Numbered from the stretch's first letter, positions 28,501-34,221 are shown. The stretch: DNA of 64,000 nucleotides from Erysipelotrichales bacterium (GCA_009784525.1 WRBM01000007.1:2616-66615); one strand, 5' to 3'. Translations and numbers: made by a program. The notes: generated from the sequence alone by a model not told the origin.

Positions 28501-30518
28501 TAAATCCAAGAATCACAAAAACGCAAGAAATAATCGGCGGAAGCATGGAATTTGGCGACCGACTTACTATCGATTATCATTATGATCATTTTGGCAGACC
28601 TTCAGGAAGAACGATGGAAGAACGTACTTTTCGAGGACTTGCAAGATCTCAAAGTATAAAAAAAGTAATAGAGGATTATAGATATATTCCAACGACCGGG
28701 ATTTTAATGGATATAATAGTCAGAGATACGGATATACCTGGTTCTCACAATATTATTTATGACATGAGAAATGATATTGACATAATGGGTGGTCATATTG
28801 ATGAAAGAACTACTAGTATCAGAATTCATGATTCAAGTAGTCAAGCGCTCCAAAATTCTCGCAATCATATAGTTAATTATCAATATAGTTATGACGCATC
28901 CAGAAGATTAATTACAGAAATTTGGGGTCAGGACTTTGATCGAAGAGAAGGTAATAGATTCACTTATAATACTGATGGTTCGATAAATTCAGTGGAGTAT
29001 TCGGGGCTAGTTCGAACAAATGGTATAATCAGTGGAACTATAAGCAATTATAACTATCAGAATGGTCGACTTAGAAGCATTGTGTCAAATACTGAAAGCG
29101 CAAATTTTGATTACGATTTCCTAGGAAATTGCACGCATTATAATAGTAATACAGTAAATATGATTTGGGATAGAGGCAATCTTTTAACAGAATATCGATC
29201 AGGTTCTAATAATAATCAAACTGTTAGATATCGCTATAATAACCAAGGTTTGCGTATTAGAAAAGAATTTCCCAACAATCATTTCATTGAATATATATAT
29301 GATGGTAACAAACTTATCGCAGAAAGAGAAAGTGATACTAGATATATAAGATATATATATGACCTTAATGGAATGATTGGCTTTGTGATGAGAGGATTTA
29401 CAAGACCAATATTACCTCATGATTCACCAGATGTATTAGAGTATGCTTATTATTTTATTAAAGATACTATCGGTAATATTGTTGGTTTAAGAAGTGACAA
29501 TCACTTTGAGATGATTATAACATACGATTATGATGCATTTGGCAGACATAAGGTTATGTTAAGAGATAGAGGGAACGTCACAGAGATTACTGATCCAGAC
29601 CATATTGGCCGTAGAAATCCTTACAGGTGGAAGAGTCAGTACTATGATTCAGAAAGTCAGCTTTATTATTTAGAAGGCAGATACTATTCGCCATTGATGA
29701 GACAATATATCAGTCCGGAAGCACCTTACGAGGTGGCTGAACGGGCAATTTTACCAAATAGTTTGAATTCTTATCTTTTAACAGTTGTGAATCCGGTTAG
29801 TTTGGTGTATAATAATAGCAGTATTCTCTCGAGCATTCCATTATATTTTGACGTACCTGAAATAGTGAACAGACGAGGATGGCGCTGGTGGCAACACGTT
29901 GCCTTTTGGGGTGGAGTAATTGCCTTAACGATTGTGACTAAGGGAGCAGCATTAAAACTTTGGAAAGTGGCTAAGGGTGCTAAAGCTGCGAAAGTTGGGC
30001 TTGGTGTTGGGCAAGGTTTCACGGTTGCGGGTAGTTCAAGTATCATGAGTCAAGGTTTTACGGGCATGAATAATGGCTATGGATTCTTTGGTGGCATTAG
30101 CTGGAGCCAGTTTGGTTTTGACGCTACGATTGGCGGATTATCTGGTGGAATCGGGGGAGCTTTTACTTCTCGATGGATAGCGGCAGTGGCTGGATTTAGC
30201 ACAAGTTTTGTGGGGGTTGCAGCACCTCAAGTAATTGATGGTGGCTTAAGCAATGTCAGTTGGTGGAATGCCACTGCGCAAGGTTTAATGGGTGCAGGAA
30301 TTGCGTTTGGGACTTCTACAATGACTTCCGCTGCAAATAAGGCAGTAGGAGGATGGGCAGCAAAAACCCCCATTGCCATAACGGTTGGGGCTAATCCTGG
30401 CGTTATGTTATCTAGCGTCACAGTAACAACAGCGCAAAAATCATTTTTTTGGATTTCAGTTGGATCACAACTATCAGGTATGGGAGCATCTAGATTTGGC
30501 GGTTGGCTTTTAGAATAG
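25554..30518 (+). CDS. Rhs/YD-repeat protein with hydrophobic Gly/Ala-rich C-terminal domain
   Basis: N-terminal VNVRTG...ISHIYN...GQWKLN, YD repeats, core NPYRWKSQYYDSESQLYYLEGRYYSP. Confidence 0.9.
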   Translation: MQEHIGHTKLNYQIKNAFVSVNVRTGRVLAEIPALDVGNKNNPLRISHIYNPTVWPSLFLNSLAGQWKLNVEQRLIQRPNPGGNPSFDYIDEAGTIHVFRYAGNIGNVFTYHDTSGLNLILTTTGQSVITERVITDENQNRLEFNASGQLVASVSGENASIRMNYVYSGSLLSEVFHSNRQMRRVRFIYRNQRLEEMRYVTTNPETVHQTYHYDYDRNNNLRTITRRSRRNSSRKTEHKTHIFYVPNTTRIAGLYDTRDSEAIRITYNSVQHEGINKVNRIETGIANTLKANEGVLRARGTLDIPFFGEITGLENHAFKTIISNTQFIYGAIHTQVDVINEKNVRLRYFFNGRGLLSSIFELDGANLRELEKRPGVDMLSPGASDAEMINGIFSRTVVLSGSGEPTENLFVNTIRNITQARNHRYRHFNNFVIGFWLRLTETMANNRLIINIASISPNVNTENAVFFDNTAINVWQYVEVSVRIPGEVLYTVRLNFPGGAGRTIRLAGMKFFYGDRTKMFLSFNGPTSHRDILENIRSIGFVDTFRPNESALAINSSFFITENDILSTYDSFMKRTGEHFMLSTCDLTRKYLVRSARFVFQNQNSWNVRLQTGTDFCDFFIETRSANDKLVTETLLRRIINHPIVQNVSCIGIHQRARYENGPPTTTDLWFDFQGRVRLEEDEYRVESIYSYDNWGSVTKRTTQPNNQQLAQHLRETFIQTNNNSIYARNVANSIISRSNLFVDPFGQLSSTTMEARSPFGVPTNPNLRYQLSYTYDDFFDKIISVSDNVRGSNSMGNNQVARNVLEYDDVERLKEFKDQGSNYGFSFDYNDIGDLSNSYIQLDNDKRRVSNMTISRNINNDIMSYRRFRNDGTNPTDTTIVTSDRFGSIVSFNENNNNVVFTRQNLVESQSVAEIIEYRDPFDNNRLYSFNYSDGNEVTEYDVEGKLNVKATGEGIVYTILGIGTTHRSAKTTLTFDENININPRITKTQEIIGGSMEFGDRLTIDYHYDHFGRPSGRTMEERTFRGLARSQSIKKVIEDYRYIPTTGILMDIIVRDTDIPGSHNIIYDMRNDIDIMGGHIDERTTSIRIHDSSSQALQNSRNHIVNYQYSYDASRRLITEIWGQDFDRREGNRFTYNTDGSINSVEYSGLVRTNGIISGTISNYNYQNGRLRSIVSNTESANFDYDFLGNCTHYNSNTVNMIWDRGNLLTEYRSGSNNNQTVRYRYNNQGLRIRKEFPNNHFIEYIYDGNKLIAERESDTRYIRYIYDLNGMIGFVMRGFTRPILPHDSPDVLEYAYYFIKDTIGNIVGLRSDNHFEMIITYDYDAFGRHKVMLRDRGNVTEITDPDHIGRRNPYRWKSQYYDSESQLYYLEGRYYSPLMRQYISPEAPYEVAERAILPNSLNSYLLTVVNPVSLVYNNSSILSSIPLYFDVPEIVNRRGWRWWQHVAFWGGVIALTIVTKGAALKLWKVAKGAKAAKVGLGVGQGFTVAGSSSIMSQGFTGMNNGYGFFGGISWSQFGFDATIGGLSGGIGGAFTSRWIAAVAGFSTSFVGVAAPQVIDGGLSNVSWWNATAQGLMGAGIAFGTSTMTSAANKAVGGWAAKTPIAITVGANPGVMLSSVTVTTAQKSFFWISVGSQLSGMGASRFGGWLLE
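29785..29813 (+). promoter_or_regulatory. Internal sigma-A-type promoter in the Rhs gene, probably for the immunity gene
   Basis: TTGTGA-17-TATAAT; recopied as TTGCGA-17-TATAAT at 31301-31329. Confidence 0.55.
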
Positions 30519-30531
30519 GAGATATTATGTT

Positions 30532-31194
30532 ATGAAATTTAAGAATTGGCAAAGAATTTACTCAACTTTAAATTGGCTTTCATGGCCGCCACTCTTATCT
30601 ATGGCCTTCGTAGCAATTGTTGCTTATGACGGATATACTCCGCCCTACTCATGGGTAGAGTGGAGTATGGGAGTATTTTTGTTTACTGGCCTCTTTGCCA
30701 CTATACTTTGCACTATAATTAAAGGATTCATTGATTTGGCAGCCAAAGAAAATAATTTAATTGTTAAATATTTTGGAAAGCCAGAGAGTAAATTTAAAAC
30801 CTATTATTTTTATAATACTGGTGCTAATCGACGATTTCATCATAAAGCGAGAATTCTAAACGAAATAAAAAAATTTCGCGAGTTAAAATTTACACCTAAA
30901 GGTTTATTTATTAATACTCATTGGTTTTTTCTGCTTGATGCTAAAGAGCAATTATTTTTATGGGAAGATGTAAAAAAAGTGGTATTTGGTCCTAATGAGA
31001 TAACAATAAAGTTTCACAACAGCAATAAAATTGAAAATAAAGCAAACCCGAATAATCCGCTACTAGTTGGCAATAGTTATTATGTTATTAATAAAACAGA
31101 TTTTTATTGTTATATACTAAATGATATAGTTTTCATTAAATTAATTAAAACCTTTTATGAGGGTGAAATAGAAGAAGCAAGCGATTTAAAATAG
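30532..31194 (+). CDS. Putative cognate immunity protein 1 (2 TM + PH-like domain)
   Basis: RBS overlaps Rhs stop; two N-terminal TM helices; LKFTPKGL...LWEDVKKV. Confidence 0.75.
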   Translation: MKFKNWQRIYSTLNWLSWPPLLSMAFVAIVAYDGYTPPYSWVEWSMGVFLFTGLFATILCTIIKGFIDLAAKENNLIVKYFGKPESKFKTYYFYNTGANRRFHHKARILNEIKKFRELKFTPKGLFINTHWFFLLDAKEQLFLWEDVKKVVFGPNEITIKFHNSNKIENKANPNNPLLVGNSYYVINKTDFYCYILNDIVFIKLIKTFYEGEIEEASDLK

Positions 31195-31223
31195 TATGAA
31201 TCAATAAGAAATAGAGCAATTTG

Positions 31224-33185: not shown

Positions 33186-33351
33186 AAATTATATATAAGA
33201 ACGTCATTCAGAAATGTTTGACGTTTTTATTAGTTCTGTGATTTGGAAGAAATGGTGTATAATATTCATGCCCCAAAAAATTTTAACTAATATACAATAG
33301 GCAATCTGGTATATTTTCCGCAAGCGTGGCAAAATATTAACATAATTATTC

Positions 33352-33549
33352 ATGGCTTCATCATTCGAAAAGGCAGTAGTAGGATGAGCGACGAAAAACG
33401 CTATAGCCACAACCGTTTTAGCTAATTCTGGCGTTATGTTTTCTAACGCGACAATAGCTAGTGCCAATAGAGTGTTGTTTTGGATTTCAGTTGGATAATA
33501 ACTATCAGTTATGGGAGCATCTAGATTTGGCGGTTGGCTTTTAGAATAG
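33352..33549 (+). repeat. Degenerate orphan copy of the Rhs tip with in-frame stops
   Basis: MASSFEKAVVG*ATKNAIATTVLANSGVMFSNATIASANRVLFWISVG**LSVMGASRFGGWLLE*. Confidence 0.85.
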
Positions 33550-33564
33550 GAGATATTTTAGTTT

Positions 33565-34221
33565 ATGAAATTTAAGAATTGGCAAAGAATTTACACCTTA
33601 TTACTCTGGTTATCATTTATACCTCTCTTTTCAATAGGTTTCGTAGCAATTGTAGCTTATGACGGATATAGTCCGTCGTACCCATGGGTATGGCGGAGTA
33701 CAGGTATACTTACATTTGTAGCTTCTGTAGCAATCGTTCTTTTGACTTTAATCAAAGGACTCATTGATTTGGCAGCCAAAGAAAACAATTTAATTCTTAA
33801 AGATTTTGAAAAGCCAGAGAGTAAAGTTAAAACCTATTATTTTTATAATACTGGTGTAAATCAACGATTTCATCATAAAGCGAGAATTCTAAACGAAATA
33901 AAAAAATTTCGCGAATTAAAATTTACACCTAAAGGTTTATTTATTAATACTCATTGGTTTTTCCTGCTTGATGCTAAAGAGCAATTATTTTTATGGGAAG
34001 ATGTAAAAAAAGTGGTAGTTGGTCCTAATGAGATAACAATAAAATTCCACAGCAGCAATAAAATTGAAAATAAAACAAACTCGAATAATCCACTACTAGT
34101 TGGCAATAGTTATTATGCGGTTAATAAAACAGATTTTTATTGTTATATGCTAAATGATATAGTTTTCATTAAATTAATTAAAACCTTTTATGAGGGTGAA
34201 ATAGAAGAGGCAAGCGCTTGA
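33565..34221 (+). CDS. Putative orphan immunity protein 4
   Basis: Paralogue closest to copy 1 (FVAIVAYDGY, HHKARILNEIKKFRELK). Confidence 0.75.
   Translation: MKFKNWQRIYTLLLWLSFIPLFSIGFVAIVAYDGYSPSYPWVWRSTGILTFVASVAIVLLTLIKGLIDLAAKENNLILKDFEKPESKVKTYYFYNTGVNQRFHHKARILNEIKKFRELKFTPKGLFINTHWFFLLDAKEQLFLWEDVKKVVVGPNEITIKFHSSNKIENKTNSNNPLLVGNSYYAVNKTDFYCYMLNDIVFIKLIKTFYEGEIEEASA

Follow-up and report, generated by a model that had tools for sequence, protein, structure and literature searches.

An Rhs gene with a glycine-rich C-terminal domain and a mosaic array of four paralogous putative immunity genes in an Erysipelotrichales bacterium

Organisation of the locus

The 64,000 bp stretch of an Erysipelotrichales bacterium genome analysed here (accession: GCA_009784525.1, WRBM01000007.1:2616-66615; hereafter the window, with positions counted from its first nucleotide) encodes an Rhs gene that is followed by four paralogous genes, designated imm1 to imm4. 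The genome behind the window comprises 1.96 Mb in 83 contigs, is 81% complete and has a GC content of 33%. The imm1 gene begins 13 nt past the TAG stop codon of Rhs, and the array has the order Rhs - imm1 - spacer A/orphan 1 - imm2 - spacer B/orphan 2 - imm3 - spacer B/orphan 3 - imm4 - spacer A. All four paralogue open reading frames (ORFs) were intact and encoded 220, 218, 216 and 218 aa, as had been recorded (216-220 aa) in an earlier note on this DNA made from the sequence alone, whereas the toxin remnants between them were truncated, deleted or interrupted by stop codons. The locus thus has the layout of an orphan array: behind a live toxin gene and its adjoining putative immunity gene lie truncated 3′ fragments of the toxin, each ahead of another paralogue. 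Its features, all on the + strand, are as follows.

25554-30518 (+): Rhs toxin gene, 1654 aa ORF
29805-30518 (+): C-terminal toxin domain (CT) of Rhs, aa 1418-1654, 237 aa, delimited by the domain matches and alignment, Gly/Ala/Ser-rich
30489-30522 (+): 34-nt block (toxin end, TAG stop, AGGAGA), copy 1, exact match
30532-31194 (+): imm1, presumed cognate immunity gene, 220 aa, predicted hairpin and PH-like domain
31223-31256 (+): terminator-like hairpin 3′ of imm1, 13-pair stem followed by a T run
31278-31488 (+): spacer A and orphan 1, from repeat families D8, D11 and D3, stop-to-stop frames and alignment
31456-31489, 32492-32525 and 33520-33553 (+): 34-nt block, copies 2-4, exact matches
31501-32157 (+): imm2, putative orphan immunity paralogue, 218 aa
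32177-32293 (+): spacer B, first copy, core-end remnant of an Rhs of the type found on contig C19
32342-32521 (+): orphan 2, last ~60 toxin codons, 76% identical over query aa 177-242
32535-33185 (+): imm3, putative orphan immunity paralogue, 216 aa
33204-33320 (+): spacer B, second copy, from repeat comparison (repeat D5: 33237-33370)
33370-33549 (+): orphan 3, degenerate toxin end with three in-frame stops
33565-34221 (+): imm4, putative orphan immunity paralogue closest to imm1, 218 aa
34277-34324 (+): distal spacer-A remnant of an Rhs core end, closing the array, 85% identical to 31278-31325 (D8)

The Rhs gene and its C-terminal domain

Analysis of the Rhs protein revealed matches to RHS_repeat (PF05593, Pfam; 22.8 bits against a cut-off of 22) and, between aa 1326 and aa 1417, to Rhs_assc_core (TIGR03696, NCBIfam; 34.4 bits against a cut-off of 32.5). 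Repeats and a core lie ahead of a variable C-terminus, as in Rhs/YD-repeat polymorphic toxins. The CT that follows was distinct in composition from the rest of Rhs (16.9% Gly, 12.2% Ala, 10.5% Ser and 2.1% Asp plus Glu), and the DNA encoding it had a GC content of 46% compared to 33% for the genome. The only GxxxGxxxG motif of the protein, at aa 1527, was inside the CT, and nine GxxxG motifs were present in these 237 aa compared to five in the remaining 1417 aa. With this motif and its few charged residues the CT resembles glycine-zipper toxins, although helices were predicted only at a predicted local distance difference test (pLDDT) score of 40. The zipper block was invariant in all four full or partial CTs. 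From its composition and by analogy with characterised toxins, the CT most likely dissipates the membrane potential of competitors.

Alignment of the CTs showed two variable regions, the larger at columns ~106-140 and the other, which contains the tip patch, at columns ~186-196. The earlier note had placed the difference between toxin tips in a single patch, which was incomplete, as the full-length toxins also vary in the larger region (~aa 1537-1580). This region lies between conserved blocks, shared 17-49% identity among the full-length CTs and was retained by no orphan. In columns ~106-140 the window toxin was the outlier of the four CTs: it had an insertion of two residues and, in the two bins that varied most, shared 17-33% identity with the remaining three, which shared 28-43% identity among themselves there.

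Searches with the CT found only itself and an orphan CT at a metagenome locus (L014, below). Its rarity is a soft statement because word-based candidate picking is weak with a Gly-rich query. A class-level genome search gave three weak matches in 398 other genomes (two genomes unscored), with E-values of 1e-5 to 1e-4. At the two of these loci that include the downstream region (L017, 831-1235, - strand; L018, 768-1268, - strand), the weakly similar Gly-zipper Rhs CTs were followed by a protein with transmembrane (TM) segments and a small C-terminal domain, an arrangement that hints at a wider toxin/immunity superfamily.

The four paralogues

A search of the whole genome with the paralogues returned only these four (E-values 3.8e-152 to 4.9e-90), and none of them matched a Pfam or NCBIfam family. 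Whole-protein identity to imm1 was 68% for imm2, 67% for imm3 and 82% for imm4. Residues 1-17 shared 76-100% identity, residues 18-68 shared 12-55% and residues 69-217, the C-domain, shared 81-91% (the latter two over the six in-array pairs). The C-domains were therefore conserved, although calling them near-identical, as had been done, was somewhat generous. Residues 1-10 (MKFK[NT]WQRIY) were invariant in six proteins except at residue 5 (N/T) and residue 1; the L014 homologue has a TTG start, shown as L at residue 1.

Two hydrophobic segments were found by hydropathy in three of the four copies, while in imm1 only the second reached the cut-off of 1.6. An AF2 model of imm1 (15-sequence alignment, mean pLDDT 67.8) contained helices at residues 3-32 and 40-79, followed by a beta-sandwich closed by a C-terminal helix. 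The hypervariable two-TM region of the earlier note was thus borne out by the identity values and by the predicted hairpin, but by hydropathy for only one of the two segments of imm1. Comparison of the model with the PDB using Foldseek returned only PH-type folds at the top (SSRP1, FERM F3 and Rtt106; E-value ~0.02, probability up to 0.99). A second fold search, independent of Foldseek, matched residues ~85-215 to PH/PTB/FERM-F3 folds with Z-scores of 6.3-8.1 and a root mean square deviation of 2.5-3 Å, a range that is rated common. We therefore describe the C-domain as PH-like with moderate confidence. The bacterial PH profiles bPH_2/DUF304, YcxB and bPH_7 gave no Pfam match at E<=1 for the four paralogues, and no bacterial PH family of Pfam matched any of the 15 family members at E<=0.1. 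Atlas rows for DUF304, YcxB and bPH_7 were all below the naming bar; the other rows were unnamed clusters only.

Positive charge marks the cytoplasmic side of membrane proteins (the positive-inside rule). The N-terminus carried a net charge of +3 in all four copies, the loop was neutral or acidic, and the region past TM2 had a net charge of 0 to +3, being positive in three copies and zero in imm3. By this pattern both termini, and hence the PH-like domain, are probably cytoplasmic, and each paralogue would be an N-in/C-in two-helix hairpin with a short outside loop.

The shared toxin end, orphan remnants and spacers

An exact 34-nt block, which contains the toxin end, was present in four copies in the window compared to none expected (100 shuffles), and an exact search found it absent from the rest of the genome. 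The same Rhs end therefore precedes each paralogue, as had been noted. The block terminates in TAGGAGA, such that the toxin stop codon overlaps a Shine-Dalgarno sequence; AGGAGA was located 8-11 nt 5′ of each ATG, in agreement with the proposal that the shared toxin end serves as the ribosome-binding site. An RNA structure joining the conserved toxin end with the 5′ end of the immunity gene was unsupported (-4.2 kcal/mol; none of 13 pairs with a compensatory change).

Orphan 1, located 5′ of imm2, consisted of a remnant of the resident Rhs core end (LTVANPISLVYN...) and, behind it, the initial CT codons in a shifted frame. An internal deletion of ~570 nt has removed its tip patch and left only the last ~20 toxin codons. 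Orphan 2, 5′ of imm3, was an open frame that lacked a start codon and an Rhs body and contained the patch ATAASANSAL. Orphan 3, 5′ of imm4, likewise spanned the last ~60 toxin codons and contained the patch ATIASANRVL and three in-frame stop codons (one TGA and two TAA). The corresponding patch of the live Rhs (aa 1624-1633) was VTVTTAQKSF. The three strings were as quoted in the earlier note, which did not record that orphan 1 has no patch and that orphan 3 is interrupted. The TGA stop of imm4 prompted us to consider recoding of TGA as Trp; this was set aside, as Rhs contains 22 TGG codons and no in-frame TGA.

The A-B-B-A order of the spacers was confirmed by alignment: the spacer A pair (31278-31325 and 34277-34324) was 85% identical and the spacer B pair (32210-32343 and 33237-33370) 87% identical. 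The translation of spacer B matched the core end of an Rhs paralogue on contig C19 (20 of 39 aa identical, E-value 4e-13). Spacers A and B derive from different Rhs core ends; the array modules therefore stem from at least two Rhs lineages, between which modules of the toxin family have moved. Promoter-like TTG(T/C)GA-16/17-TATAAT sequences were found at 29785-29813 (core end of the live Rhs), 31301-31329 (spacer A) and 32209-32236 (spacer B, TTGTGA-16-TATAAT). Lying in core-end sequence, they might act as internal promoters and allow the immunity genes to be transcribed separately from Rhs.

Related loci and other strains

Homologues of the paralogues were rare. A word-indexed search of 5.77 billion clusters found three proteins outside the window, and an exhaustive profile search of 1.84 billion representatives found nine at E<=1e-3. 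A contig scan of species-representative genomes returned no homologue, nor did the only other genome of the same taxonomic family. A metagenome scan revealed three related loci (L013, L014 and L015). Distant members retained the architecture and the motifs ENxLILKDFGTPESKxKTYY, KFTPxGL, FLWxDV and KLIxTFY.

A CT of this family was located directly 5′ of a paralogue homologue at all three metagenome loci. L013, from a related strain, is syntenic with the Rhs locus of the window: the same Mur-ligase-like gene is found upstream, and its Rhs has 1653 aa. The two Rhs proteins were 78-100% identical per 50-aa bin to ~aa 1450 and 54-74% identical in the CT, such that identity fell from 96% to 54-74% past the core. 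L013 encodes one immunity gene compared to four in the window; behind it, a spacer-B remnant begins and gives way to unrelated sequence. The content of the array thus varies between strains, a comparison that had been proposed in the earlier note. L014 carried a full-length orphan CT and a homologue behind another Rhs that bears a different Gly-rich CT. On L014 (1-2600), this second Rhs was followed by 213-aa multi-TM and 196-aa TM proteins before the orphan CT, and prophage tail genes were located just downstream. L015 carried a CT end and a homologue, followed by the next Rhs fragment.

As the two families are consistently paired, and in view of their position and membrane location, they are naturally read as a toxin-immunity pair; they make up one toxin/immunity family rather than a set of unrelated modules, as had been stated. 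From their position and their co-occurrence with the CT at all three related loci, the paralogues most likely protect against variants of the toxin tip. We regard it as highly improbable that they are instead membrane accessory factors (for insertion, export or as a receptor) or that the locus is a decaying, functionless relic. The family is very rare and no secretion system was found, as such readings would allow; nevertheless, the position after the toxin stop, the retention behind dead remnants, the co-occurrence and the purifying selection described below together form an immunity signature, and Rhs retains an intact frame of 1654 codons.

Additional samples were found among Logan records, with no RNA dataset listed for the stretch. 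Two sequencing runs from two studies (X1 and X2, both labelled termite gut metagenome), one of which may be where the assembly came from, contained hairpin pieces unique to imm1, imm3 and imm4 with at most one mismatch, as well as the conserved part of imm2 and the spacers, on short contigs that break at the repeats. No Logan record spans the array; as contigs break at the repeats, copy order is unreadable in other samples. In a third run (X3), a 383-nt contig joined a spacer-B-like stretch (32248-32368) to the Rhs patch and the 5′ end of imm1 (30390-30628), the latter with no mismatches over 239 nt. This joint implies that the imm1 module is an orphan in that strain.

Mosaic structure and selection

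In 45-nt bins, all pairs of units shared 82-97% DNA identity from -69 to +18 around the ATG, 28-75% for most pairs in the hairpin and 64-97% in the remainder of the gene. The groupings changed along the alignment. Unit 1 resembled unit 3 5′ of the patch (90-97%); at the patch, units 3, 4 and L013 clustered (85-95%) and unit 1 stood apart (68%). In the hairpin, unit 1 grouped with unit 4 and unit 2 with L013, and over codons ~67-111 unit 3 stood apart. Downstream, spacer B was common to units 2, 3 and L013 and spacer A to units 1 and 4. The shared toxin end therefore lies within a conserved block across which the flanking parts were reassorted, which agrees with its proposed role as a recombination anchor. 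The pairing of copies 1 and 4 put forward in the earlier note was clear (hairpin 55%, C-domain 91%), but that of copies 2 and 3 was weak in protein (hairpin 31%). The sharpest boundary was between imm2 and the L013 gene, which were 95-100% identical over nt 19-153 and 51% identical over nt 154-198 (helix 2); residues 1-52 of the two proteins were identical and TM2 then differed. Differences were clustered in all four pairs tested, as none of 200 shuffles reached the observed maximum chi-square.

Selection was estimated for the six in-array pairs by the Nei-Gojobori method, comparing residues 18-68 with residues 69-217. The proportions of synonymous (pS) and non-synonymous (pN) differences were 0.43-0.74 and 0.27-0.59 in the hairpin and 0.10-0.34 and 0.04-0.11 in the C-domain. 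The ratio of non-synonymous to synonymous divergence (dN/dS) was 0.57, 0.30, 0.53, 0.43, 0.54 and 1.16 in the hairpin and 0.23-0.32 in the C-domain, which is under purifying selection in all four copies. The regional comparison called for in the earlier note was neither a clean pass nor a clean failure: the hairpin ratio exceeded that of the C-domain (0.30-0.57 in five pairs and 1.16 in one), but an excess of non-synonymous change was not demonstrated. As synonymous divergence was also higher in the hairpin than in the C-domain, the hairpin is, judged from these values, older than its flanks and not just faster at replacement sites. Codon differences at conserved residues were commoner in the hairpin at p<0.05 (uncorrected) in five of 10 pairs and not significantly so in the other five. 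With dN/dS mostly below 1 and synonymous sites near saturation, the pattern is that of old cassettes between homogenised flanks. The data are most simply explained if recombination at the two conserved blocks has exchanged divergent cassettes or homogenised their flanks. Positive selection may also have acted on the hairpin, but is not demonstrable with saturated synonymous sites and six sequences. A diversity-generating retroelement was set aside, as indels are part of the variation and the genome, with four matches in all, contains no additional hairpin copy that could act as a template; reverse transcriptase was not searched for.

The same data bear on a reading in which the array arose by tandem duplication and neutral drift, the hairpin is a mere anchor, the PH-like domain neutralises the toxin (for example via the invariant toxin end) and the four copies are redundant. 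This would fit hairpin dN/dS values below 1 in five of six pairs, the fact that the PH-like domain and the last ~20 residues of the toxin are the most conserved parts of each partner, and a tip patch that does not co-vary with the hairpin (below). It does not explain the sharp boundaries (imm2 and L013, 100% then 51% within 90 nt), nor the synonymous divergence of the hairpin, which is 2- to 5-fold above that of the adjoining domain in the same gene pair. It would also require another reason for the retention of four redundant intact copies, and the published immunity to ionophores of contact-dependent inhibition (CDI) systems is cognate-specific (PMC11630599). We consider drift rather unlikely.

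Toxin tips and hairpins

The earlier note had proposed that the variable hairpins mirror the tip patches. Six modules contain both a tip and a hairpin (Rhs/imm1, orphan 2/imm3, orphan 3/imm4, L013, L014 and L015). Across these, the identity of the 10-residue patch was uncorrelated with that of the hairpin (r=0.04, reached by 259 of 720 permutations), so this proposal was not upheld. The last 60 toxin residues gave r=-0.07, and the four close modules alone gave r=-0.03 for the patch (14 of 24 permutations). Orphan 2, orphan 3 and the L013 Rhs had patches that were 50-80% identical, followed by hairpins of 12-41% identity, while the imm1 and imm4 hairpins were 55% identical yet the patches before them 20%. 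Since the conserved block that separates patch from hairpin is the likely crossover site, an orphan tip says little about the partner it originally had. That the window CT is the outlier in the larger variable region and its partner imm1 has the outlier hairpin class is a single event and is no test of co-variation. One observation speaks for linkage, namely the single contig of run X3 (depth 5) in which the Rhs patch and the 5′ end of imm1 stand together.

These results bear directly on a tip-switching model that builds on the earlier note, in which each orphan patch matches the hairpin behind it and a crossover at KAVGGW...GVML moves a patch with its immunity gene onto the live Rhs. Orphans 2 and 3 start at the same point, and in the ~85 nt before the patch orphan 2 shares 90-97% DNA identity with the live gene (orphan 3, 72-78%). 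Recombination between main and orphan rhs has been observed in Salmonella, as cited in PMC9484751, and VTVTTAQKSF occurs with the 5′ end of imm1 in a second context in run X3. Nevertheless, patch and hairpin similarity were uncorrelated, three stops interrupt orphan 3 and orphan 1 lacks the patch. Additionally, the full-length toxins differ more in the mid-region that is missing from the orphans, so a patch swap alone would probably not yield a matched pair. Tip switching of this kind appears distinctly unlikely.

Interpretation of the locus

Taken together, the locus is likely to encode a membrane-depolarising Rhs toxin with its immunity gene, followed by three orphan immunity genes that have been reshuffled at conserved blocks. 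The glycine-zipper domain of the CT would insert in the cytoplasmic membrane of a competitor and dissipate its membrane potential. The imm1 product, as an N-in/C-in hairpin with a cytoplasmic PH-like domain, would neutralise the resident toxin, and imm2-imm4 would be intact orphans maintained by purifying selection while the toxin pieces before them decayed. Each remnant may now act as a leader, with a promoter-like site from an old Rhs core end and a Shine-Dalgarno sequence over the old stop codon. Homologous recombination or gene conversion would have built and reshuffled the array, acting at two conserved blocks: the toxin end with the first ~6 immunity codons, and the PH-like domain. Between these, the hairpin acts like an old cassette open to exchange and, we infer, determines which toxin allele is neutralised within the membrane. 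The hairpin may contact the toxin in the bilayer. Immunity proteins of pore-forming colicins recognise the hydrophobic helices of their toxins. The extra copies would protect against the toxin alleles of neighbouring strains.

Several observations weigh against this interpretation. The CT had no family match in Pfam or NCBIfam and hit no described toxin family, and its structure prediction (pLDDT 40.2) was too low for a fold search, so a helical membrane bundle is not established. Prediction of a complex between the CT and imm1 gave a score of 0.00 in a run without controls and permits no verdict either way. Rhs had no recognisable signal peptide or delivery domain, and aa 1-700 had no Pfam hit. 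No WXG100 gene was found in the genome, which at 81% complete leaves its absence unproven, and the best EssC score in the same 81%-complete genome was 114 bits against a cut-off of 778; a type VII LXG island, with LXG domain, WXG100 and EssC, was thus not recognised, and the neighbours of Rhs are housekeeping genes. The promoter-like sites numbered 27, not above shuffles (22.9 +/- 5.3). Diversifying selection was not demonstrated, as hairpin dN/dS was below 1 in five of six in-array pairs. TM helices tolerate hydrophobic substitutions, and part of the hairpin divergence could be neutral. Only four full or partial CT-immunity pairs are available, too few for co-variation between the main variable region and the hairpin to be assessed, and the joint in run X3 is a single contig of depth 5.

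An extension of the interpretation is that immunity acts in two compartments through a single chain. Before export, the invariant toxin end or the zipper would be retained by the PH-like domain; the hairpin would serve as a swappable intramembrane cassette, and the array would double as a library of tips and immunity genes accessible by one crossover. We think this combination unlikely; the cytoplasmic hold on the toxin, comparable to that of ExiAB on EsxX, is an attractive idea and a speculation.

Neighbouring genes and other Rhs genes

A Mur-ligase-family gene (24172-25550) ends 4 nt before the Rhs ATG and is split in two overlapping ORFs of 303 and 191 aa. In L013 the Mur-ligase-like gene is a single ORF (1-1122), and its split in the window is due either to a frameshift or to a fault in the assembly. 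Two paralogous small ORFs (MRW.TTNT.LANRIN.GNTF...), at 23434-23589 and 23657-24157, lie 5′ of this gene and matched no Pfam family. The distal flank of the array encodes a metallo-beta-lactamase-fold protein (34563-35708, + strand) with an Asn/Thr-rich low-complexity N-terminal region, and a collagen triple-helix repeat protein (35813-36961, - strand). L013 has lepA at its distal flank; the lepA of the genome behind the window is on contig C13.

At least three further Rhs genes were located at contig ends (contigs C35, C71 and C19, examined as L008, L011 and L012, respectively), which indicates a sizeable Rhs arsenal that breaks the assembly. Contig C19 encodes an Rhs with another membrane-type CT, a 165-aa TM protein and an orphan of the same family before the contig ends. 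On contig C6 (L010) an orphan fragment lies beside other small TM proteins.

Comparison with known systems

Strings of non-identical esaG, tsaI and tipC immunity genes, the copy number of which varies between strains, have been described (Garrett et al., PMC9484751), with conserved blocks of ~55-100 nt as recombination sites and 3′ fragments of tspA inside the tsaI cluster. Like the system proposed here, TspA/TsaI of Staphylococcus aureus combines a polymorphic membrane-depolarising toxin, a string of paralogous membrane immunity proteins and toxin 3′ fragments. It differs in that TspA is an LXG toxin delivered by a type VII system, whereas here the carrier is an Rhs and the incomplete genome yielded no type VII genes. 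TsaI is predicted to have five TM helices, the first two of them conserved, while here a predicted two-helix hairpin, the variable part, is joined to a PH-like domain; little evidence of recombination was reported for tsaI, whereas a clear mosaic is present here.

In one group of CDI ionophores, the toxin helices and the membrane immunity proteins are both polymorphic (~30% identity) and, in competition tests, protection is cognate-only (Halvorsen et al., PMC11630599). These CdiA-CT/CdiI pairs of E. coli, compared by description only, resemble the present pair, in which the toxin helices are predicted at low confidence, as a helical toxin family with a glycine zipper and polymorphism at predicted contact helices. 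They differ in CdiB/CdiA delivery in Gram-negative hosts, in entry domains that hijack inner-membrane proteins and in a CdiI without a soluble domain. As paralogous immunity strings with toxin 3′ fragments and cognate-only ionophore immunity have both been published (PMC9484751, PMC11630599), the concept of the array is already established, and the novelty implied in the earlier note is overstated.

Tse5/Tsi5 of Pseudomonas aeruginosa (PMC12744356, PMC11630599) resembles the proposed toxin, by description only, as an Rhs cage with a C-terminal membrane-depolarising pore-forming domain and a membrane-bound immunity protein; it is delivered by a type VI system, and no paralogous immunity array is mentioned in the parts of these sources that were available. 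EsxX, with ExiAB and ExiCD (PMC12744356), is a glycine-zipper membrane toxin whose membrane immunity genes occur as orphans. Its zipper is sequestered in the cytoplasm by a soluble protein (ExiAB) and membrane proteins guard against incoming toxin, such that two functions are divided between separate protein pairs of other folds, whereas here a hairpin and a soluble domain are fused.

Classical Rhs/CDI orphan arrays (PMC9484751) similarly have displaced CT-immunity modules behind the live gene, which keep part of the Rhs core end, and tandem immunity genes have been noted (PMC3482391). Here, the modules all come from a single toxin/immunity family, with toxin parts of at most ~60 codons. A literature search and PMC3482391 gave no description of a PH domain in a bacterial immunity protein, which does not prove its absence. 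The present locus is new in its two unnamed families, in the hairpin and PH-like architecture of the putative immunity proteins, in that the hairpin is the variable part, and in that dead toxin ends are put to use as leaders. It leaves the general view of the evolution of such loci unchanged and extends the polymorphic-toxin repertoire by a toxin domain and an immunity architecture, both unnamed, from a gut bacterium that is uncultured, has a low GC content and yielded no recognisable export system. Its clean boundaries (leader, ~50-residue hairpin and conserved domain) form a natural chimera set for the question of how membrane immunity proteins may discriminate between alleles within the bilayer, a question that stands equally for TsaI and for immunity to pore-forming toxins in general.

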